Part shown: in pieces, positions 5,483 through 40,480 of the stretch
Layout: each line of letters opens with the position of its first letter
How positions within the stretch are numbered: the first letter of the stretch is position 1
Assembly: GCA_041665505.1 (NCBI GenBank)
Contig: JBAYIR010000002.1
Location: 75,602 to 139,601, forward strand
Direction: 5' to 3'
DNA length: 64,000 nucleotides
Origin: Patescibacteria group bacterium
GTDB taxonomy: Bacteria; Patescibacteriota; Patescibacteriia; UBA1558; GWA2-36-10
Made by a program: the position numbers and the translations under genes
Notes under the pieces: model-generated
Database searches by the model: none
What the model was told of the DNA's origin: nothing
The model's input: only the letters and a program-made list of their open reading frames with translations

Positions 5483-7129
<1,647 letters not shown>

Positions 7130-12889: not shown

Positions 12890-12984
12890 CATAGTGAAAA
12901 TGAAGAATAGTGAAGAAGGACAAGACAATATCGTTGACTATGGTAACACGGATTTCATAACAAGTCAATAATTAGAGTATCAAG

Positions 12985-13500
12985 GGCAAAATTAAAGGGA
13001 GCCGGTGAGGGCCCCCTAGATTTCTCGACCACAAAGCCCGCTCTAGTACAGGATATCATCTTCCGATAACTCATTACGGAGCACGGGCACCAGCCGACGT
13101 GGCCGCGTGATCGTGTCACACGAGGGCTTGGGTTGTGATTCAGGTTTGGGTTCAGGCTTGAACTTCGGCGGATTGGCCTTGGCTGGTGGTAAGGCATCCA
13201 AACCCTTGAAGCCACGATTAACAGCATTGCGGATACGCTGAATATGAAACTTCTTCTCCTCCACGGTCCAAGGACCACGACTGTTGAGCTTGATAAACAG
13301 GTCCCGCAAATGCTTGCACTTGCCACGAGACCGACGAGGCTGGCGACGCGAAACACGTTTAGAAGGGTCATAACGACGTTCAGAGTGGGTTATAGGTGCA
13401 AACTTGGACTTGCCACGGCTGCGCCGAAGCGGACGGTAGGTGGCACTCTTAAGAGACATGCTGTTACTCCTTATGGCCTGAGTGAAGAACATCCTGGGAA
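12985..13500. other. GC-rich compositional island 1.
   Basis: High-GC codon usage shifts abruptly against the AT-rich flanks. The island holds one gene with an AAGGAG RBS. Confidence 0.7.
13043..13459 (-). CDS. Highly basic Arg/Lys-rich small protein of unknown function, encoded in a GC-rich island.
   Basis: The ATG at 13459-13457 is preceded by AAGGAG at a 7-nt spacing. The product reads MSLKSATYRPLRRSRGKSKFAPITHSERRYDPSKRVSRRQPRRSRGKCKHL..., with an internal RRSRGK repeat and a PKFKPEPKPESQPKP tract. The longer ORF starting at 13492 lacks an RBS. Confidence 0.5.
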   Translation of the reverse strand: MSLKSATYRPLRRSRGKSKFAPITHSERRYDPSKRVSRRQPRRSRGKCKHLRDLFIKLNSRGPWTVEEKKFHIQRIRNAVNRGFKGLDALPPAKANPPKFKPEPKPESQPKPSCDTITRPRRLVPVLRNELSEDDILY

Positions 13501-13922: not shown

Positions 13923-15767
13923 TTGATTTTTACAAAAAATAAAAGTCAAAATATCTTTGGCTATTTTTTGTCTTTGATTAAAATTGGTAAAGATAAGCTG
14001 GCTTTAAATGAAGAAACTGATGTTAATCAGCAACTGATAATACAGCTCAACAAAAAGAAAATTCCTAACTTAGGACAGCTAAAACAATTACCAAAGTTCC
14101 TTAATAAAAAAGAAAAACTCCAATTGACCCTAGCCTTGGCTATATTTATAATATCCAGTTTTGGTGTTGCTTGGCGTTTTTATCTAAAGAGTTCAAATAC
14201 TGTCCCCGACTACGGCGGTACTTATATTGAAGGTATGATTGGTGTACCAAATTTGGTCAATCCTATACTAGCTACCAGTGATGTGGATAGAGACCTGACT
14301 AAATTGATATTTTCAGGTCTGATGAAGCAAGATGGTTCTAATCAACTAGTACCTGATTTGGCTAGTGGCTATAGTATAGACGCCAGTCAAACTACTTATA
14401 CTTTTGAGTTGCGCGATGATTTGCGCTGGCACGATGGAGAGCCTATCACTGCTCAAGATGTCTTATTTACTATCGCCAACATCAAAAATCCCGAATACAA
14501 AAGTCCTTTTAAAAATAGTTTCAATGGCGTCAGTGTCCAAGCTATCAATGATAGTACTATTCAATTTAAGTTAGAAAAACCTTTTAGTCCTTTTCTATCA
14601 ATTTTGACTATTGGTATTTTACCTGAACATCTTTGGTATTCCATTCCTGCTTTTGGTGCTAATTTAGCTGATTTAAATATCAAGCCAATTGGTTCTGGAC
14701 CATACAAATTCAAATCCCTGACTAGAGAAAGTAGTGGCAGTATCAAATCATACGTTCTAGAATCATACGAAGATTATCATCTAGCTAGAGCCTACATCAA
14801 TGAATTAAGTTTTAAATTCTACCCTGATTTTGAAACAGCGGTGACTGCTTTGCAAAACAAAAATGTAGATGGACTTATTTACCTGCCAAAAGAATACAAA
14901 GAACAGCTAAAAAATTCCAAAATCACTTTGCACAACCTACAATTTCCTCAATACACCGCCTTATTTTTCAATCCCAAAAATAATAATCTGCTAAATGATA
15001 ATAGTTTCCGCCAAGCCCTGTCTTTGGCTGTAGATAAACAAAGAATACTTGATGAAGTATTATATGATGATGGACAAATAATACATGGTCCTATTTTACC
15101 TGGCCTGCTAGGTTATAATAGTGAACTTAAAGCTGAGGATTATAACGTTGATAAAGCCAAAGAAATCTTAGATGGTTTAAAATGGCCGATGCCAGCTGAA
15201 GGAAATTTCCGCACCCAAACTAAAGATGATCAAAGCACCGAATTGAGCATCAAAATAAGCACCATTGACCAAGCTGAAAATGTGAAAATAGCTTCCATTA
15301 TTCAAGAAAATTGGCAAAGTATAGGCATCAAAACTGAATTAGATATTGTCTCCAAAGATAAAATAAAAAAAGACAGAATTGATGGACGTGATTATCAAGT
15401 ATTAATCTTTGGCCAAGTAATAAATACTAACTCTGGACCTTACCCCTTTTGGCATTCTAGCCAAAATACCAATCCGGGGCTAAACCTGAGTGTCCTGGCC
15501 AACAAAGATATCGATAGCTACCTAGATACAATACGTAATGCCCCAAATGAAGCAACGGCTTTAGAACCGCTACAAAAATTTCAAGAAAAATTATTGGATT
15601 TAAATTTTGCTATATTTTTATATAATCCTACTTACACTTATCCTATCGCTGATAAATTAAAAGGCTTAGAAGACCTAAAATTTATTAATTTACCAGCTGA
15701 TAGATTCAACAACATCACGTCTTGGTATATAAAAACCAAACGTATGTTATCACGTAATGATTCTTAA
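13923..15767 (+). CDS. ABC transporter substrate-binding protein, family 5 (oligopeptide/nickel type), membrane-anchored.
   Basis: The SBP_bac_5-like core reads GGTYIEGMIGVPNLVNPILATSDVDRDLTKLIFSGLM...LRDDLRWHDGEPITAQDV. An N-terminal TM anchor is present. The annotated start at 13923 is TTG, so the true start is uncertain. Confidence 0.65.
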   Translation: MIFTKNKSQNIFGYFLSLIKIGKDKLALNEETDVNQQLIIQLNKKKIPNLGQLKQLPKFLNKKEKLQLTLALAIFIISSFGVAWRFYLKSSNTVPDYGGTYIEGMIGVPNLVNPILATSDVDRDLTKLIFSGLMKQDGSNQLVPDLASGYSIDASQTTYTFELRDDLRWHDGEPITAQDVLFTIANIKNPEYKSPFKNSFNGVSVQAINDSTIQFKLEKPFSPFLSILTIGILPEHLWYSIPAFGANLADLNIKPIGSGPYKFKSLTRESSGSIKSYVLESYEDYHLARAYINELSFKFYPDFETAVTALQNKNVDGLIYLPKEYKEQLKNSKITLHNLQFPQYTALFFNPKNNNLLNDNSFRQALSLAVDKQRILDEVLYDDGQIIHGPILPGLLGYNSELKAEDYNVDKAKEILDGLKWPMPAEGNFRTQTKDDQSTELSIKISTIDQAENVKIASIIQENWQSIGIKTELDIVSKDKIKKDRIDGRDYQVLIFGQVINTNSGPYPFWHSSQNTNPGLNLSVLANKDIDSYLDTIRNAPNEATALEPLQKFQEKLLDLNFAIFLYNPTYTYPIADKLKGLEDLKFINLPADRFNNITSWYIKTKRMLSRNDS

Positions 15768-23260: not shown

Positions 23261-23339
23261 AAAAAGCCGTAAAAATACAACAAAAACCCCGCCACCAACT
23301 AAAGCCGACTGTGCCAGAAAATTAGCTCTTTTAAGCTGC

Positions 23340-23378
23340 TTTTCTGCAAATTGCCCCTTCGTAGCTATGGTGATATAA
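23340..23378 (+). promoter_or_regulatory. Candidate promoter for the small-ORF block.
   Basis: TTGCCC, a 17-nt spacer, then TATAAT, with an extended -10 TGATATAAT. It lies about 80 nt upstream of the ORF starting at 23457. Confidence 0.45.
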
Positions 23379-23456
23379 TTTTATTATAGTTAAATGGTCA
23401 ACTTCTTATACGCTGTCCTGTTATGACGAAATTATTAAACTTTTAATTATAATTTT

Positions 23457-23741
23457 ATGTTAAAGTCAGAAGAAATTTACAAAAATCTTACCCGCAAAGA
23501 AGCAATGTTGGCGTATACATTTTGGCAGTTTTTAATTCCTAAACTATGGATTTTACTGATAGTTATAGCAAAAATATCATATTCTTTTGGAGATGGCACA
23601 ATTAACACATTATTATTTGTAATTGTTATTGCTGGTCTATATTTTTGGTATTTTATGACTGTAAGATCTCATGTAGCAATAAAAATTGCCAAAAAATTAG
23701 AGGAAGAGGAAAACAACAAAAAGTTTAATAACATCGCCTAA
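23457..23741 (+). CDS. Small two-TM membrane protein, hypothetical.
   Basis: 94 aa with two hydrophobic helices (WILLIVIAKISY; LLFVIVIAGLYFWYFM). Confidence 0.4.
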   Translation: MLKSEEIYKNLTRKEAMLAYTFWQFLIPKLWILLIVIAKISYSFGDGTINTLLFVIVIAGLYFWYFMTVRSHVAIKIAKKLEEEENNKKFNNIA

Positions 23742-23768
23742 CACCGGATATCCGAGGAGCGAGCTAGA
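23742..23768. repeat. GC-rich palindromic spacer element E1 (inverted-repeat arm A).
   Basis: Sequence CACCGGATATCCGAGGAGCGAGCTA. It contains the 10-nt palindrome CGGATATCCG and is inverted relative to 24410-24431. Confidence 0.7.
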
Positions 23769-23791
23769 ATAGATTTAATAAAATAATATAA

Positions 23792-24403
23792 ATGAAACAA
23801 AAAACTACAACAACTAAAGATGCTGTAGAATTAATGAATGAAATAAAGCAATCTTTGCATGACGATATTCTTACTGCATTAGACATATATAGTAAAACTG
23901 GAACTGGATTTTTTGCCATACCAAGACTTATATTTCCAGAGATAGATAACCTTGGGGCATATATGGCTGGAACAACAAAAAATAGCCCCAAAAATGCCAT
24001 CGCCTTTATAAAAAAATATTACGCGATAATTAATCCTGAATATACTAAAAAGGGAGCACTAATTTACTTTATTTATAGACACGGATTAATGCATCAACAC
24101 GTGCCTAAATTTGTTTCATATCGCAAAAAAAATATTGGCTGGCAAATATCTCTAACGATGGAAAATACTAAATCTACCCATTTAATGCTGATGGATAAAA
24201 CTATAATATTAGAAGGCAGACAACTATATACTGACACTATTTTTGCAATAGATGAATATATTAAAGATTTGCAATCTGATAAAAAAGTTTTGAATAATTT
24301 AATTATTGCGCATCAAATGATGATGTCTCCAATAAATAAAACTGCACTACTAAAAAATTATAAAAATTACATAAAACAAGCTGATCTAAATTTCTTAAAA
24401 TAA
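23792..24403 (+). CDS. Hypothetical protein with a candidate HEPN-like Rx4H motif.
   Basis: 203 aa with no confident family. RHGLMH is an R-x4-H pattern like the HEPN catalytic motif, but this is weak. The ORF is bracketed by inverted repeats A/A'. Confidence 0.4.
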   Translation: MKQKTTTTKDAVELMNEIKQSLHDDILTALDIYSKTGTGFFAIPRLIFPEIDNLGAYMAGTTKNSPKNAIAFIKKYYAIINPEYTKKGALIYFIYRHGLMHQHVPKFVSYRKKNIGWQISLTMENTKSTHLMLMDKTIILEGRQLYTDTIFAIDEYIKDLQSDKKVLNNLIIAHQMMMSPINKTALLKNYKNYIKQADLNFLK

Positions 24404-24409
24404 CTTTCT

Positions 24410-24458
24410 TAGCTCGGGACGTCGGATATCCCCGTCTGTTGTACGCAATTACGATAAT
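24410..24458. repeat. Spacer element E2 carrying IR arm A' and IR arm B.
   Basis: TAGCTCGGGACGTCGGATATCC (24410-24431) is the inverted arm of E1. GTTGTACGCAATTACGATAAT (24438-24458) is inverted relative to 24752-24772 at 18 of 21 positions. Confidence 0.7.
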
Positions 24459-24475
24459 CAATAATAGTATAAATT

Positions 24476-24739
24476 ATGTCATCAATAAAAGATATTTTAG
24501 GTCCATGGGAAGATCCAAATTTTGATAGTAGCCTAATAGAGAGATGTAGAAATGCTTGGGAAAAAGAACTTGATTTACTTACTAATGAAGAAATGGCTAC
24601 TTTTTTAAGACAAAATATTGCGGCTTCAAATATATTACCTCTCGCTAAAAAGAGAATCGCTGAAAAATATGATGACAATACAGAAATGTATGACGGAGAA
24701 CTACAAGAAGCTATTGAAAAATATAAAGAAAACAGATAA
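24476..24739 (+). CDS. Small acidic hypothetical protein.
   Basis: 87 aa, bracketed by inverted repeats B/B'. Composition is immunity/adaptor-like but no family could be assigned. Confidence 0.4.
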   Translation: MSSIKDILGPWEDPNFDSSLIERCRNAWEKELDLLTNEEMATFLRQNIAASNILPLAKKRIAEKYDDNTEMYDGELQEAIEKYKENR

Positions 24740-24751
24740 CCAAATACATTA

Positions 24752-24786
24752 ATTATCGTAACTACGCACAACACCGCGTATGCGGT
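24752..24786. repeat. Spacer element E3 carrying IR arm B' plus a palindrome.
   Basis: ATTATCGTAACTACGCACAAC is followed by the near-perfect palindrome ACCGCGTATGCGGT. Confidence 0.65.
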
Positions 24787-24812
24787 TCATGAGTTAAATT
24801 AAATTATTTTTT

Positions 24813-25259
24813 ATGAGTTATTACACAGCAACTGCCGAAAAATTTGAAGAGGCTAAAAAAATAGAGAATTATTACGTCACTATGAGTGGAGATTATGGTG
24901 GTGATCATTACTTATGCTGTCCAACTAAAAATATCAAATGTGATTTTAAAACATTACAAAATTTATTACTTGAAATTGATATTTGGGATAAAGAGGGTGT
25001 AGAGCTAAATTTTATTGAGATAAAACCTAGTAATTCTTGGCTAACTACTGGTGAAGGTGGCGGAGATTGCCTTTGGTTAGGAAGAAGGCTTGAGAAAAAA
25101 CGTAAAAGAATACAGGGAATCTTAAATGGTAAACGTAAAAATATTGGAACAAATTTAACAGATGTTTTAAAATTTATAGTAAAACTACCTATATTTATTA
25201 TAATGTTTTTACGCATACTTAATGCTTTAAACAAAAGAGATAAGGAAGAAAAAAAATAA
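24813..25259 (+). CDS. Hypothetical protein with a C-terminal TM helix.
   Basis: 148 aa with a Cys-containing N-terminal domain, a GEGGGD loop, and a basic tract followed by a hydrophobic helix. Confidence 0.4.
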   Translation: MSYYTATAEKFEEAKKIENYYVTMSGDYGGDHYLCCPTKNIKCDFKTLQNLLLEIDIWDKEGVELNFIEIKPSNSWLTTGEGGGDCLWLGRRLEKKRKRIQGILNGKRKNIGTNLTDVLKFIVKLPIFIIMFLRILNALNKRDKEEKK

Positions 25260-25370
25260 TTTAATTTTACACTCGCTCACCCAAACCCTTTCGACTCCCC
25301 TTCGGCTTCGCTCAGGGTCGCTCAGACTCGAGGAGCAGGCCGGCAACACTGGATATGAGGCAAAATTATG
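25260..25370. repeat. Large GC-rich modular spacer element E4.
   Basis: It contains CGACTCC, CTTCGCTCAGG (whose reverse complement occurs at 36494-36504), a triple CGCTCA, CTCGAGGAGC, and ACACTGGATATGAGG, which resembles E1. Confidence 0.7.
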
Positions 25371-25398
25371 ATAATTAATAACAATATAAATAAACAAT

Positions 25399-25932
25399 AT
25401 GAAAAATAAAACATTTATTCCCATATTTATTTTAGTGGCTATTGTCTTAGCTAATCAGATTGTTCATGCTGTTCCTGCTGTACCTGGACCTACGTGTGAA
25501 ATAACTGCAATAATTTCTAGTCTCGAAAAAAATATAGCAAACACAGAAGAACAAGGACAAAACTCCAGAACAAATTTTGATTATTACAAAATAAATTTAG
25601 ATATTCTTAGTATTTCCACATACCAACAGCGAGATGGTCTTTCTTGTGATAGTTTTGATATAGAACAAATTGAACAATCTGGCCAAAAACTTAGTTTAGA
25701 AGAGTACAACAACAATCCAATCTTAATTGGACAAAAAATCAAAGCAAAAATGAGTTTCGGTGGAGATGAACGGTTCAACGGTTATTTTTTATCAGAAATA
25801 CAAATCTTAGAAAATACGACTACCACACAAAATCCAAAAGACAACGAATCAAGCTATTGGTATTTTGTCATCCCTGTAATTACACTTTCATTGAGTATCA
25901 TTTTATACATATTATTTAGAAAAAAAAATTAA
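25399..25932 (+). CDS. Secreted protein with a C-terminal membrane anchor.
   Basis: The N-terminal signal peptide is MKNKTFIPIFILVAIVLANQIVHA and the C-terminal TM is YWYFVIPVITLSLSIILYILF. Confidence 0.45.
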   Translation: MKNKTFIPIFILVAIVLANQIVHAVPAVPGPTCEITAIISSLEKNIANTEEQGQNSRTNFDYYKINLDILSISTYQQRDGLSCDSFDIEQIEQSGQKLSLEEYNNNPILIGQKIKAKMSFGGDERFNGYFLSEIQILENTTTTQNPKDNESSYWYFVIPVITLSLSIILYILFRKKN

Positions 25933-25941
25933 AAAAACATT

Positions 25942-26754
25942 ATGCCAAAACTTAAAATATTATTACTCTTTAGTTTTATCTTCATTCTATCTGCTTGCAC
26001 ATTACCAGGATTCAAAAAAACTCCAGACCAAAATACCAATCAAAATACCAACCAAGTTGTAAATACCAATGACTCAGATGACAATGAATATAATCAAGAT
26101 AGCTGGCAATCTTTAATTGCCAAAAACTGCTTGAGTTTCAATGATGGCTGCAATGACTGTTTTCGTAGCGAAGCGGGAGCTACTGCTGCTTGTACCAAAA
26201 AAGCTTGTGCTGTTTACCAAAAGCCATATTGTCTAGACAATGAAGATGATGAAGTAGGGGCTAATCAGCTAGAACAGCTAGTTGAGCTAGGAACTGAATT
26301 TACTCTACACAAAAATGAATCAGCTATAGTCCAAAATATCGGCTACAAAATAACTATCACTAATTTTTTTAACTCCCCTTGTCCTGAAGGTGCTCAATGT
26401 TTGTGGTCCGGAATAGGTATAGCGCTACAACATAGCTTGAAAGGTGAAATCAAAGAAGGTATTGATATGACCGAAGCTTTTGGCTACAGCACAACTATCA
26501 TTGATACTGACTACCAAACTTTTGCCAAGCTCAAAATCCAAGTATCAACAAATACCAACGACTTGAGTGCTTGTCAAACTGCTAGTGACTGCGTAGCTGC
26601 TACTTGCTGTCACCCGACTAGCCTAGTCAACAAAAAATACGCTCCTGACTGCGCGGCTATATCTTGTGATATGAGCTGCCAAGTACCACTAGATTGTGGA
26701 GCTGCCAAAATAGCTTGTGAAAATAATAAATGTACAATAGTATCGGCTGAATAA
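25942..26754 (+). CDS. Lipoprotein with a Cys-rich C-terminal domain.
   Basis: The lipobox is FILSA|C. An NQNTNQNTNQ low-complexity linker is followed by more than 14 cysteines in the mature domain. Confidence 0.5.
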   Translation: MPKLKILLLFSFIFILSACTLPGFKKTPDQNTNQNTNQVVNTNDSDDNEYNQDSWQSLIAKNCLSFNDGCNDCFRSEAGATAACTKKACAVYQKPYCLDNEDDEVGANQLEQLVELGTEFTLHKNESAIVQNIGYKITITNFFNSPCPEGAQCLWSGIGIALQHSLKGEIKEGIDMTEAFGYSTTIIDTDYQTFAKLKIQVSTNTNDLSACQTASDCVAATCCHPTSLVNKKYAPDCAAISCDMSCQVPLDCGAAKIACENNKCTIVSAE

Positions 26755-26769
26755 ATATATGGAATACAT

Positions 26770-33808: not shown

Positions 33809-34261
33809 ATGAACCTGAACCTGAGTTGGTTTGAAGTCCAGAGCTACACCGAGCAGGATTTCTTCATCCGTCACCTCAAGCTTGGCTGCCACAGGCAGTA
33901 CTTTCTTCCCAGCAAACGTCGACTCATTCTTGATGTCTGCATCCCCATACTACAAGCCATCCGTGAGGGTAAAGGCATAACCCAGGAGAGCTGGGACCTG
34001 GTCAGGCTGGCTGAGAGTCGTCAGTTCCGACGTTCCGAGATCGAACCAACTATCTGGGACATCTACCAGGAGTTCAGTTCGCCTATGAACAGTCTCAAGG
34101 CTGCCAGATATCTCGGGCTGTCCCAGCGCCACTGCCTTCGCATCATCGCTGGTCTGGCTCGCCTCAACGACAATGTGCACAAGTCCAAGAAGAAGGGCTG
34201 GCAGGTGCCGGTCGTCGCTCTTGATGATTGGTTGATCAAGTATCGTCCGGCCACAAATTGA
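33809..34261 (+). CDS. Excisionase/AlpA-type helix-turn-helix protein of mobile-element origin.
   Basis: The C-terminal NSLKAARYLGLSQRHCLRIIAGL...KKKGWQVPVVALDDWL fits the Xis-family HTH (HTH_17) pattern. The first ~80 aa are unassigned. Confidence 0.5.
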   Translation: MNLNLSWFEVQSYTEQDFFIRHLKLGCHRQYFLPSKRRLILDVCIPILQAIREGKGITQESWDLVRLAESRQFRRSEIEPTIWDIYQEFSSPMNSLKAARYLGLSQRHCLRIIAGLARLNDNVHKSKKKGWQVPVVALDDWLIKYRPATN

Positions 34262-34275
34262 CCAACAACGATGAA

Positions 34276-34306
34276 GCCGGTCGCGCGCAGCGCGCGACCG
34301 GCTTTA
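34276..34306 (+). terminator. Strong GC hairpin terminator.
   Basis: GCCGGTCGCGCG-CAG-CGCGCGACCGGC forms a perfect 12-bp stem followed by TTT. Confidence 0.7.
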
Positions 34307-34376
34307 AAATTAATATACAATATTGCATATACGAGACAATATGCTAAACTAAATAGCGTAATTATTATCTACCAAT

Positions 34377-36475: not shown

Positions 36476-36596
36476 ACACACAGTCCACGTCCTGAGCGAA
36501 GACGAGCTAAGCTCGTCGGAGTCGAAGGACGGAGTAGGACCAATGACCGTAGCAATGCTGCTATATAACACCGTTAAATTGAGCTTAGCTAAATAA
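36413..36596 (+). repeat. Direct duplication of the folD 3' end flanking a 51-bp GC-rich repeat-element insert.
   Basis: Copy 1 is 36413-36475 and copy 2 is 36527-36596. They share GGAGTAGGACCAATGACCGTAGCAATGCTGCTATATAACAC exactly. The insert 36476-36527 contains the hairpin GACGAGCTAAGCTCGTC flanked by CGAAG direct repeats. Confidence 0.85.
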
Positions 36597-36602
36597 AAAA
36601 AT

Positions 36603-39461: not shown

Positions 39462-39526
39462 AATCAGGACTATTATAACCCAAATAAAAAAATAAATCCA
39501 ACTAAAAAATTGGACAAAATAAAGGA

Positions 39527-39593
39527 CCGGGCTCCCTGGTGAGAGAGCCCGGTCGAATTCCGTGACCGCTAGTCGCTAGTTAGCGACGACTGG
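39527..39593 (-). terminator. Terminator hairpins of the pilin pair.
   Basis: CCGGGCTCCCTGGTGAGAGAGCCCGG, read on the minus strand, is followed by a T-rich tract. A second imperfect 15-bp stem spans the pilin stop codon. Confidence 0.55.
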
Positions 39594-39996
39594 TCAAGGT
39601 CAGAGCAACGGTATCAGTACCGTAACCCTTGACGACGTAGTCAGTCGGCCGACCTTCGGGGTCAGGCAGAACTTTGACACTGACCTGACCAGGAGAGGTG
39701 GCCTCACCACCGAAACGCGGCTCTGTAGCCTTGCCGGTGTAGGGGTTCTCCAACAGCTTGCCGCCCGGCAGGAAAGGCAGGAGGTCAGCCGCCGCGTCCG
39801 AGTAGAGGCCGTCGTGCCGGACGGCGAAATCCTCCATGGCCAGCTGCACGGTGTGCACCGCACCCTTGACATTGGCCTCCTTGGCCCGGTCCTGCATACT
39901 CATGTAGTTGGGGATGGCGATGGCCGCCAGAATGCCGACGATGACCACGACGATCATGAGCTCGATCAGGGTGAAACCTCTGCGCTTCTGCGACAT
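39580..39996 (-). CDS. Type IV pilin / pseudopilin (prepilin with an N-terminal methylation motif), copy 1.
   Basis: MSQKRRGFTLIELMIVVVIVGILAAIAIPNY has the class III signal (G|FTLIELM) and the hydrophobic alpha1 helix. The RBS is CAGGAGGAAAAGGAC-ATG. Confidence 0.8.
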   Translation of the reverse strand: MSQKRRGFTLIELMIVVVIVGILAAIAIPNYMSMQDRAKEANVKGAVHTVQLAMEDFAVRHDGLYSDAAADLLPFLPGGKLLENPYTGKATEPRFGGEATSPGQVSVKVLPDPEGRPTDYVVKGYGTDTVALTLTSRR

Positions 39997-40066
39997 GTCC
40001 TTTTCCTCCTGTGGAACGTCTGAAGTTTGAGATGCTTAGCCAAAGGCTAGCATCCCGCGAAGATGA

Positions 40067-40480
40067 TCAGTTGCCGCCGTGCCAGGTGAGGATATTGATC
40101 GCCTCACCAAAAGCTGTGATGATGTATCTCTGCCTCCCCCCATCGGAAATCAGCTGCACGCCGACCTCCCCCGGAGTCTTGGCACTAGCCCCGAACTGGG
40201 GCTCGGAAAACTGGCCAGTGAAGCCATTCTCCAACATCTTGCCACCCGGCAAAAGAGGCAGGAGATCCTCAGCTCGGTCGGAGTAGACTCCGTCGTGGCG
40301 CACGGCGTAGTCCTCGACCGCCAACTGCAGCGTGTGTGCCGCGGTCTTGGTCTTGTCCGTCTTGGCCGTGCGGTCCTCCATACTGATGAAGTTGGGGATG
40401 GCGACGGCCGCCAGAATGCCGATGACCACGACGACGATCATGAGCTCGATCAGAGTGAAACCTCTGCGCTTCTGCGACAT
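40067..40480 (-). CDS. Type IV pilin / pseudopilin, copy 2; a diverged tandem paralog.
   Basis: MSQKRRGFTLIELMIVVVVIGILAAVAIPNF. The first ~30 codons and a 22-nt 5'-UTR (GTCCTTTTCCTCCTGTGGAACG) are shared with copy 1. The C-terminal halves diverge. Confidence 0.8.
   Translation of the reverse strand: MSQKRRGFTLIELMIVVVVIGILAAVAIPNFISMEDRTAKTDKTKTAAHTLQLAVEDYAVRHDGVYSDRAEDLLPLLPGGKMLENGFTGQFSEPQFGASAKTPGEVGVQLISDGGRQRYIITAFGEAINILTWHGGN

Follow-up and report, generated by a model that had tools for sequence, protein, structure and literature searches.

What kind of genetic element sets small genes one by one between inverted repeats? The question is raised by a block of six short, co-oriented open reading frames (ORFs), here called P1 to P6, in a 64,000-nt stretch of DNA (hereafter the window) from the 35% G+C genome of a Patescibacteria group bacterium, a member of the Candidate Phyla Radiation (CPR; GenBank assembly GCA_041665505.1, contig JBAYIR010000002.1). 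An earlier reading of the bare sequence (the original prediction) had proposed that individual ORFs of this block are enclosed by inverted repeats and that they represent either invertible segments or gene cassettes delimited by recombination sites, with the acting enzyme encoded elsewhere or the array being a relic. The analysis described here favours the latter, in that the block is, with a probability of about 0.68, a decayed, recombinase-less array of CPR-specific gene cassettes of the site-specific-recombination type. Underlying this reading are a conserved split sequence element in about 50 CPR-like metagenome loci, covariation between its two halves, an alternating architecture of the arrays, their link to a tyrosine recombinase gene and a dif-like site, and turnover of the cassettes.

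Both brackets described originally are present, with inverted repeat IR1 around P2 (23745-23766/24410-24431) found exactly as claimed and IR2 around P3 (24437-24462/24748-24773) covering 26 nt with 85% complementarity. A third bracket, IR3, which consists of A and T only, encloses P4 (24793-24812/25251-25270; 20 nt, 95% complementary), and a fourth, weaker one encloses P1 (23427-23444/23719-23736; 18 nt, 89% complementary). Flank pairing was assessed by folding with each ORF swapped for a five-base loop, using dinucleotide shuffles of each arm (n = 300) as null. The resulting z values were -4.0 for P2 (none of the 300 shuffles being as good), -4.2 for P3 (one of 300) and -5.6 for P4 (at most one of 300), so the repeats are non-random, and the concern raised with the original prediction that they might be no better than chance was not borne out. 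In terms of duplex energy between cognate 5' and 3' flanks, P3 ranks first and P2 second among the 62 genes of the window. For the immediate flanks of P1, z was -0.98, the downstream arm of this bracket lying outside the tested flanks, and the same shuffle test gave no excess folding for the flanks of P5, of P5 plus P6 or of the whole block, P5 and P6 being unbracketed. The spacers between the ORFs had been regarded as palindromic, GC-rich structured elements. Folded alone, they reach z values of -0.6, +0.8, -1.6 and -0.8, no better than shuffles; hence, they are not local palindromes and the pairing runs across the ORFs. Local hairpins or terminators within the spacers were rejected on the same grounds. 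Elevated G+C content holds for 24407-24447 and 25267-25364 only and not for the other spacers. The recurrent motif upstream of ORF starts, AACACYGGATAT, was confirmed, being exact at 23740 and 25345 only across the 64 kb, with a one-mismatch match at 14151 against 0.5 matches expected. Target-site duplications were absent from the bracketed units, ARAGORN gave no match on the window, and Rfam searches at gathering and permissive thresholds yielded nothing relevant, neither for the window nor for 20 loci carrying intact elements.

Homologues of P2 in two metagenome loci, L086 and L089 (loci are numbered with the prefix L), are likewise bracketed, and their bracket is homologous to that of P4 in the window and not to that of P2. 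The ORF preceding the P2 homologue has its own repeat of ~57 nt, and the resulting two-gene module displays sharp homology borders at two different chromosomal places. Using a 20-nt pattern, TTNACRCTCGCTCACNCAAA, from the 3' arm common to the P4 and L086/L089 brackets, 94 metagenome stretches were retrieved, including about 55 low-GC contigs that carry a whole 3' half of ~110 nt directly 3' of an ORF. This half reads AAAATnATTTTATTT-TTAAC-GCTCGC-TCACCCAAA-(variable hairpin)-CTTC-GGCTATGCC-GAAAC-GTTAGGC-GAAAT, and upstream of the same ORFs a 5' half of the type ACATC-GCCTAAC-AC-GGCATAGCC-GGTTC-GCGAGC-TAAATAAAATnATTTT is found. In general form, the 5' half follows the scheme ATC-RYYYAAC-AC-H1-GGTTC-H2-H3, then one ORF, and the 3' half the scheme H3'-H2'-TCACCCAAA-hairpin-CTTC-H1'-GAAAC-GTTRRRY-GAAAT. 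Both halves were present around 37 distinct embedded ORFs of 53-252 amino acids (aa), 26 of which have a stretch resembling a transmembrane (TM) segment; deaminase-, acetyltransferase-, protease- and cupin-like proteins as well as homologues of P2 and P4 are among them. The packing is tight: 14-35 nt separate the 5' half from the ATG, and 7-26 nt separate the stop codon from the 3' half. Together, the two halves pair as four helices, while a local variable hairpin branches from the 3' half: H0 joins the RYYYAAC end with GTTRRRY; H1, of 9-11 bp, joins for example GGCATAGCC with GGCTATGCC; H2 joins GCGAGC with GCTCGC; and the AT-rich H3 closes the ORF loop. Variants of H1 include GGCGTATCTG/CAGATACGCC, GGGCTAGCC/GGCTAGCCC and CGCGTATGCG/CGCATACGC as well as CGGATATCCG/CGGATATCC of the window. 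Between H0 and H1 lies an asymmetric spacer, AC on one strand vs GAAAC on the other (2 nt vs 5 nt), and the conserved single strands GGTTC, TCACCCAAA and CTTC form a three-way junction. As a side observation, a subfamily (L113, L116, L118, L138, L144, L163, L165 and L173) has the variable hairpin of the 3' half replaced by ~200-300 nt, comprising by appearance a reverse-oriented tRNA-like gene (..TGGAGCTAAGGGGTATTGAACCCC..) between TCACGCAAA and an end of the form CTTCAGATACGCC-GAAAC-GTT.

Covariation was measured on 25 ORF-deleted elements, with partners slid by 1-3 columns and 500 shuffles as nulls. Standard pairs occupy 90.3% of cells vs 24-43% with slid partners; both sides change in 19 of 37 pairs, and none of the 500 shuffles reaches any of five measures. 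The AAC and GTT cores are invariant or conserved in 24 of the 25 aligned elements. H3, in turn, is cassette-specific: for 22 of 25 cassettes, no 3' strand pairs better than the cognate one (Mann-Whitney p 6e-11). Mismatches within the helices are equally rare for G·T (20) and A·C (25), apart from one G·T conserved in 24 of the 25 elements. A G·T frequency as low as that of A·C is expected for complementarity at the DNA level and is unusual for selected RNA helices; these wobble statistics displayed no asymmetry from which a strand could be chosen. At columns 32-37 of the alignment (A2), 8-10 of 25 elements carry the usual hexamer of the 5' H2 strand, GCGAGC, as its reverse complement GCTCGC, so that the two central positions of the helix mispair; this may reflect a small inversion or recognition of H2 as sequence rather than as helix.

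In five arrays (L110, L114, L144, L147 and L192), the elements follow each other head to tail and the ORFs alternate between a position inside a hairpin and one between hairpins. Half-sites alternate in orientation with these two kinds of unit in L110, L114, L192 and the window. At the boundaries, the stretch from GTT onwards in one site and the stretch leading up to AAC in the next are reverse complements. At all eight well-defined junctions in L110, L114, L144 and L147, where adjacent sites are 0.3-0.7 kb apart, this complementarity scores 15-20 vs 5 on average and 9 at the 99th percentile under the null. The brackets of the ORFs between hairpins are thus repeats of 15-28 nt centred on AAC/GTT cores, and the same pattern is seen for IR2 and the P1 bracket of the window. 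The same arrays contain compact sites of ~70-135 nt with a variable hairpin and without internal ORF, which suggests that the ORF-containing form is a site with one arm opened for a gene. In all related arrays, the embedded and intervening ORFs and the elements point in one direction, away from the recombinase. Inverted-repeat brackets of different kinds were noticed around other small CPR ORFs, namely an IS200/RAYT-like 137-aa gene beside purB with hairpin-containing arms (L015 9468-9881), a 163-aa tail-anchored ORF with a perfect 21-nt repeat (L013 15487-15978) and a PD-(D/E)xK-like 134-aa ORF (L029 6849-7253); a flank-repeat score of at least 16 was reached by 16 of 1561 ORFs vs ~1 expected.

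To place the window block within this family, a sequence model of the 5' half (R1) and a covariance model of the 3' half (R2), both built without the window, were run with filters off against both strands of the entire 64 kb. R1 matched at two places only, 24761-24800 (24.2 bits, E 1.9e-6) and 23731-23754 (20.1 bits, E 3.6e-5), which are the upstream flanks of P4 and P2. The best match of R2, at 25266-25366 (22.3 bits, E 0.021), is well matched over the first 20 positions only, and the second-best, at 24371-24449 (16.3 bits, E 0.26), is non-significant. Judged by their sequence, the P2 and P4 flanks are members of the conserved element family. The resulting map, in which the six short plus-strand ORFs take the positions given for them originally (ORF list), is as follows.

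23330-23432, plus strand: degenerate 3' half belonging to a hairpin site upstream; its end reads AACTTC-TTATACGCTG-TCCT-GTTATGA-CGAAAT, with the GTT core at 23420-23422.
23420-23444, plus strand: 5' arm of the P1 bracket, beginning at the GTT core and pairing with 23719-23742.
23457-23741, plus strand: P1.
23731-23766, plus strand: 5' half-site 1, with R'' core GCCTAAC (23736-23742), AC, H1 CGGATATCCG (23745-23754) and H2 GCGAGCTA (23759-23766); H1 and H2 form arm 1 of IR1.
23792-24403, plus strand: P2.
24410-24449, plus strand: 3' half-site 1 in a short form, with H2' TAGCTCG (24410-24416), H1' CGGATATCC (24423-24431), spacer CCGTCT, R' core GTTGTAC (24438-24444) and GCAAT; it carries arm 2 of IR1.
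24438-24462, plus strand: 5' arm of IR2, beginning at the GTT core, where the P3 cassette has its 5' boundary, and pairing with 24748-24772.
24476-24739, plus strand: P3.
24761-24812, plus strand: 5' half-site 2, with R'' core GCACAAC (24766-24772), AC, H1 CGCGTATGCGG (24775-24785), TTC, H2 ATGAGT (24789-24794) and H3 (24795-24812).
24813-25259, plus strand: P4.
25251-25285, plus strand: remnant of 3' half-site 2, with H3' (25251-25270), H2' ACTCGC (25271-25276) and junction TCACCCAAA (25277-25285).
25286-25340, plus strand: GC-rich (~62%) non-coding filler in place of the hairpin and site end of cassette 2.
25341-25359, plus strand: partial third 5' half-site, CGGCAAC-AC-TGGATATGAGG, found by motif search; a decayed copy of half-site 1.
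25399-25932, plus strand: P5.
25942-26754, plus strand: P6.

The stretch at 23330-23432 is tentatively taken as the start of the array, a site end without 5' partner. It resembles the cassette ends of L098 and L122 and the right arm of the dif-like site in L138/L163; its R2 match is weak (8.1 bits, E 8.3), and the complement of its H1' stretch occurs nowhere else within the window. The P1 bracket follows the pattern of ORFs between sites, as in L110, L114, L144 and L147, and the P1 stop codon TAA falls within the RYYYAAC core GCCTAAC. The P2 hairpin corresponds to a short form that lacks both the TCACCCAAA junction and the side hairpin, with a 3' end matching ends in L128 and L098. The 5' half-site 2 is near-identical to the 5' halves of L098 and L122 and gives a BLAST match to the L089 bracket. 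Its 3' counterpart has lost H1' and the R' core end, an intact copy being present in L098. The leader after the third half-site is 86% identical to the P3 leader (direct repeat 24447-24474/25364-25391); no matching 3' half was seen after P5 or P6 in the flank folding test, and these two genes may be the final cargo of the decayed array or else belong to the resident genes. Compared with RYYYAAC/GTTRRRY, the core GCCTAAC fits, and GTTGTAC and GCACAAC deviate at one position each. ORF-less GC-rich stretches of 50-150 nt, such as TCGCTCGCTCCCCCTCGCCTTCCTGCGG, were also observed between the site cores of other AT-rich arrays (L138/L163 after the dif-like site, L102 and L177) besides 25286-25340 of the window; they may be ORF-less cassettes or decayed sites.

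Cassettes recur in different company. A homologue of P4 (75% identical) sits in L098 inside an intact copy of the same hairpin; a homologue of P1 (90% identical) in L138/L163 likewise runs into ATCGCCTAAC and then precedes a different embedded ORF; and the P2 homologues of L086/L089 have the same bracket type at other chromosomal places. One small protein family (MKIVICGSMSSA..), which by eye looks like a nucleoside 2-deoxyribosyltransferase, was noticed as cassette ORF in two arrays (L171 at ~6380-6850 and L192 at 7974-7558 on the minus strand).

A conserved tyrosine recombinase of ~270 aa was found in eight loci that had been fetched only through the DNA motif. Its gene is divergent from the elements and ends 0.5-2.8 kb from the first detected element, and the six full-length copies share 54-68% identity. 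In the five recombinases scored, NF040815 (XerA/"site-specific tyrosine recombinase/integron integrase") is the best or near-best model, its cut-off being reached by the L110 protein only (233 vs 220 bits). The integron-integrase model TIGR02249 gave 184-215 bits, below the cut-off of 265, and alignment to IntI models breaks into two pieces with ~60 model positions skipped (PRK15417 188-248), which we interpret as absence of the IntI-specific insertion. The family exceeds 6,750 clusters at E <= 1e-30, whose members are named XerC, XerD or integron integrase in Patescibacteria metagenome-assembled genomes (MAGs). Being so large, Xer-named and ubiquitous in Patescibacteria, it is probably the housekeeping Xer. 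Upstream of the recombinase start, seven of the eight motif-selected loci carry a dif-like 11-7-11 site with inverted arms, e.g. ATTTCGCATAG-AAACGAG-TTAGGCAAAAT, at 95-140 nt in six loci and ~39 nt in L164; the eighth has no clear site. The right arm of this site takes the form seen at cassette ends, GTTRRRY-GAAAT; it complements the flank of the first cassette's inverse core and belongs to that cassette, which would place the crossover at the border of the central region, G|TT. The reciprocal test started from a 1.18-Mb contig (L192) chosen only via a recombinase homologue. This contig has a dif-like site, bringing the number of arrays that start at such a site near an Xer-like gene to eight loci, and its first cassette, of 1.3 kb, is bracketed by a repeat of ~22 nt. 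An ORF-in-hairpin was found there by both models (E 2e-4 and 4e-4), along with a second cassette whose ORF family is also a cassette in L171. Between L192 and L193, and within L195-L199 (downstream of xer), strains that have a recombinase protein in common differ in the small ORFs called right next to xer (e.g. 115-119 aa, present, absent or called on the other strand), which hints at gene-content variation on both sides of xer. As the original prediction had stated, the window contains no recombinase, at least none of the array-linked family in a tblastn search of the 64 kb; other invertase types were outside this screen. Without recombinase, the window array would be a partly decayed orphan.

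From these observations, a mechanism can be proposed. The recombination site would be a long imperfect hairpin whose two strands may lie up to ~1 kb apart. Its outer helix would carry integron-like cores, RYYYAAC and GTTRRRY, followed by the 2- vs 5-nt spacer, H1 and the three-way junction, with one junction arm being short in compact sites and opened in others for a whole ORF closed by cassette-specific H2 and H3. With ORFs alternately inside and between sites, every ORF would end up bracketed by inverted repeats. The single-stranded form is proposed to fold, as integron attC sites and the CTX-phage attP hairpin do, details of the latter reportedly being due to Val et al. 2005. A Xer-type tyrosine recombinase, probably the host's own, would then exchange one strand at the GTT/AAC core with a dif-like site or another cassette site, and cassettes could in this way stack beside dif and shuffle between genomes. 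A folded strand is favoured as substrate because a duplex-only dif-module model fails on the cassette-specific, covarying complementarity beyond the site.

Several points weigh against the cassette-array reading. Recombination itself, its single-stranded substrate, the exchanged strand, the crossover point and the identity of the enzyme are steps that we infer. H2 has two unpaired positions in 8-10 of the 25 aligned elements, H1 is unlike an inverted copy of the core arm, in contrast to the attC L box or a dif arm, and the strong conservation of the junction sequences may reflect a function in RNA or in protein binding. Given the ubiquity of the Xer-like family, adjacency to the arrays could partly reflect integration at dif by another route, and a second recombinase-selected genome group, L195-L199, gave no match to either model. 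The window itself has neither an array-linked recombinase nor a dif-like 11-7-11 site; its third site and part of the second appear decayed, and activity of this array is not indicated. Moreover, the block is found in four independent samples at 99.6-100% identity in one order and one orientation, with no arm substitutions (possible compensatory changes) among them.

One rival explanation, an RNA-level element, is unlikely. The halves would then be the 5' leader and 3' trailer of each cistron, forming a panhandle that controls processing (e.g. by RNase III), stability or translation, with mobility secondary or absent. The tight packing of the ORF (14-35 nt from the 5' half and 7-26 nt to the 3' half) would suit such a role, as would coverage of the translation-initiation region by H3, the strong conservation of the single strands at the three-way junction and the one G·T pair kept in 24 of 25 elements. 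Apart from this pair, however, G·U-type pairs are just as scarce as A·C mismatches, and compact ORF-less versions exist. Besides, the brackets of the ORFs between sites centre on AAC/GTT cores shared with the dif-like site by the recombinase, the same cassette occurs in different arrays, and there is no Rfam match for the window and 20 intact-element loci. An RNA role of the halves could nevertheless coexist with mobility. A structured RNA that holds the ORFs in loops, such as a group I/II intron or a ribozyme, was also considered and dropped, as there is neither a host gene nor an Rfam match and the mismatches are DNA-like.

Two further explanations invoke other enzymes, a transposase or an invertase. 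Passenger genes between terminal inverted repeats, comparable to miniature inverted-repeat transposable elements (MITEs), mobile insertion cassettes or REP/RAYT units and served by a transposase in trans, are very unlikely. Repeat-flanked small ORFs do exist elsewhere in CPR (the IS200/RAYT-like gene of L015, the perfect 21-nt repeat of L013), and the L086/L089 two-gene module with its sharp borders at different chromosomal places behaves as such a unit might. Yet target-site duplications are absent, as is a transposase in the window or beside the arrays; the units stand head to tail in one orientation by a tyrosine recombinase and a dif-like site, and their arms carry Xer/integron-like cores, with neighbours sharing AAC/GTT boundaries. 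A REP/RAYT origin in particular was rejected, the RAYT-like gene of L015 having no homologue in the window. Invertons, where an invertase would flip each ORF between its repeats for gene-level phase variation as the original prediction had envisaged, are more improbable still. Inverted repeats of 20-28 nt do flank single ORFs, and Acinetobacter dif modules of comparable topology invert experimentally (PMC13141974). In contrast, order and orientation are the same in the four independent samples (assemblies), all ORFs and elements of the related arrays are co-oriented and point away from the recombinase, and inversion would not require the cassette-specific covariation seen outside the conserved site; the window also lacks an array-linked recombinase, other invertase types being outside the screen. 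Finally, a chance origin of the complementarity, with an AT-rich genome and ordinary terminator hairpins behind it, has a negligible probability. It could draw on the 174 weak inverted-repeat pairs listed in the region, the AT-only composition of IR3 and spacers that alone fold no better than shuffles, but it is contradicted by z values of -4 to -5.6, by arms homologous to an element in dozens of loci and by strong covariation.

If the block is read as a cassette array, how does it relate to known systems? Integron attC sites are hairpins with RYYYAAC/GTTRRRY cores, an AAC/GTT triplet, R and L boxes, extrahelical bases, an unpaired spacer and variable terminal structure (PMC5027507), and integron integrases are defined by the IntI-specific insertion (additional domain, I2 helix; PMC4792948). 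Like integrons, the CPR arrays combine a tyrosine recombinase divergent from a one-directional series of mostly promoter-less small ORFs with a primary site beside the recombinase that gives up its right side to the incoming cassette; their sites are imperfect hairpins with AAC/GTT cores, an asymmetric unpaired spacer and variable terminal structure, and the 5' boundary of a cassette complements its own inverse core. This boundary complementarity extends over 15-28 nt in the CPR arrays, however, vs 7 in integrons. Unlike its integron counterpart, the CPR recombinase is a Xer-like protein of ~270 aa without IntI insertion, and the primary site is a symmetric dif-like 11-7-11. The cassette site differs as well, being highly conserved in sequence, with a three-way junction, often an ORF inside and an inner helix H1 that is not a copy of the core box. 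An attC site is a single hairpin of ~57-141 nt 3' of the ORF; related CPR arrays include compact forms with ~70-130 nt between the two cores, but in the window and in 37 other cassettes the hairpin has an ORF inside. As the defining integrase feature is missing, the CPR system is not placed in the integron family.

In integrative mobile elements exploiting Xer (IMEX) of the CTX-phage type, inverted dif-like halves fold into a mismatched hairpin which serves the host Xer as substrate at dif, and elements stack in tandem (PMC4792948). In the CPR elements, pairing of the two halves is backed by covariation, the centre is asymmetric and the mismatch statistics look DNA-like; the proposed substrate would be single-stranded DNA. 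Arrays start at a dif-like site ~40-140 nt from a Xer-like gene in eight loci; this site may be the true dif, and Xer may act on the cassettes. In contrast to these IMEX, the CPR units are single-gene cassettes without phage or replication genes, their halves can be separated by an ORF, and the arrays hold many different cassettes. Acinetobacter plasmid dif (pdif) modules are small accessory units of two alternating types bounded by inverse Xer sites, a pair forming an excisable unit; some are empty, toxin-antitoxin genes are frequent and the host Xer is presumed to act (PMC13141974, PMC6449649). Two alternating unit types and half-sites in alternating orientation are common to both systems. 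A pdif site, however, is a plain 28-bp duplex (XerC arm, 6-bp spacer, XerD arm) to which the repeats are confined, whereas CPR complementarity is cassette-specific, covarying and 15-40 bp long. Only the xer-adjacent CPR site is 11-7-11, the cassette ends sharing its right arm and having another left arm and spacer. Unlike pdif modules, the CPR arrays are chromosomal, lie by xer and a dif-like site, have co-oriented ORFs and apparently rely on a single Xer-like enzyme. In Bacteroidales rAID-1 (recombinase-associated acquired interbacterial defence) clusters, a functional parallel, a XerD-family recombinase heads long arrays of small orphan immunity genes with intergenic repeats "reminiscent of integrons" (10.1101/471110). 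The orphan CdiI_3 gene of the window and the HEPN and Abi genes of this and related arrays recall this system; in contrast, just one of the six window ORFs is a recognisable immunity gene, and the phylum is another. Overall, the arrays are best placed among site-specific-recombination cassette arrays, as an integron-like kind that is apparently widespread in CPR. The literature yielded no account of cassette arrays in these bacteria that are integron-like or linked to Xer or dif, in a search that was not exhaustive, so that a prior description is possible. Tentatively, and with somewhat less than even odds, CPR/Patescibacteria may carry an undescribed integron analogue composed of a Xer-type recombinase without IntI insertion, a dif-like primary site and gene-enclosing hairpin cassettes.

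The cargo was originally held to belong to no recognisable family, which does not apply to P2 and P3. P1 (94 aa, two TM segments) lies between hairpins. P2 (203 aa), embedded in hairpin 1, is HEPN-like in fold and motif, with an Rx4-6H catalytic motif and the four-helix up-down core of HEPN RNases, and is probably an RNase. Its family is small and found elsewhere within type I restriction-modification operons or beside other methyltransferases, unbracketed; in two loci (L090 4535-6984 and L096 1313-3921), such genes were seen between hsdM and hsdS, accompanied by a DUF3800 gene or by further uncharacterised small ORFs. The hsdM-hsdS interval is a typical place for abortive-infection genes. Since homologues in restriction-modification contexts are unbracketed, P2 would be cargo and not the agent of the repeats. 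P2 as a mobility enzyme was rejected for this reason and because the bracket type also holds unrelated ORFs. P3 (87 aa), between hairpins, matches Pfam CdiI_3 (PF18616; residues 11-84, E 2.1e-7, 31.3 bits vs a cut-off of 28), its best PDB match, a weak one, being CdiI 5j5v_C; it is thus an orphan CdiI_3-family immunity protein, with no recognised cognate toxin gene beside it. P4 (148 aa) is a C-tail-anchored protein embedded in hairpin 2, P5 (177 aa) has a signal peptide and a C-terminal TM segment, and P6 (270 aa) is a Cys-rich lipoprotein; homologues of the latter two were absent from all fetched loci. A HEPN_AbiU2 ORF is carried by the L110 array. The combination of HEPN-like P2, orphan CdiI_3 protein P3 and membrane proteins fits a store of conflict and surface genes.

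As for the genomic setting, the block is flanked by the minus-strand bactofilin/DUF8173 membrane-protein gene on one side and the HAD hydrolase-purB pair on the other. The closest purB relatives stem from Paceibacteria/Nomurabacteria-type MAGs with at most 68% identity, and the DUF8173 neighbour has no relative among GTDB representatives. In 80 purB loci of CPR genomes, neither synteny with the window nor any of the six ORFs was detected, and the 5'-half model gave zero copies across these 1.4 Mb. A replication-terminus signal is absent at the window array, GC skew just tracking gene orientation. Elsewhere in the window, G+C islands of ~55-65% were noted at 39511-40457, 12977-13463 and 33955-34316; in the largest of them, two ORFs of ~138 aa with pilin-like hydrophobic N-termini lie in tandem on the minus strand, suggesting a recent foreign origin. 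At 36476-36600, directly 3' of the folD stop codon, there is a GC-rich imperfect palindrome, ACACACAGTCCACGTCCTGAGCGAAGACGAGCTAAGCTCGTCGGAGTCGAAGGAC (z -3.4), followed by a 70-nt duplicate of the folD 3' end (alternative C-terminus ..KLSLAK*) and a terminator, which looks like an insertion that carried its own copy of the gene end. The palindrome core, CGAGCTA/AGCTCG, resembles helix H2 of the P2 hairpin.

The origin of integrons and the formation of their cassettes are open questions, and a Xer-like recombinase acting on folded single-stranded IMEX-type elements has been proposed as integron ancestor (PMC4792948). The CPR arrays have the ingredients of this Xer-plus-IMEX stage and, if the proposed reading is true, would be a living example of it, from a radiation of bacteria that is deep-branching and uncultivated. 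Because an ORF can split a site, such sites would escape current integron finders. A few oligonucleotides and a single purified protein would suffice to test the Xer-first proposal. For CPR bacteria, on whose horizontal gene transfer little is known, the system would, if true, provide a dedicated platform for capturing genes of defence, immunity and surface proteins and a main route of accessory-gene exchange in their reduced genomes.

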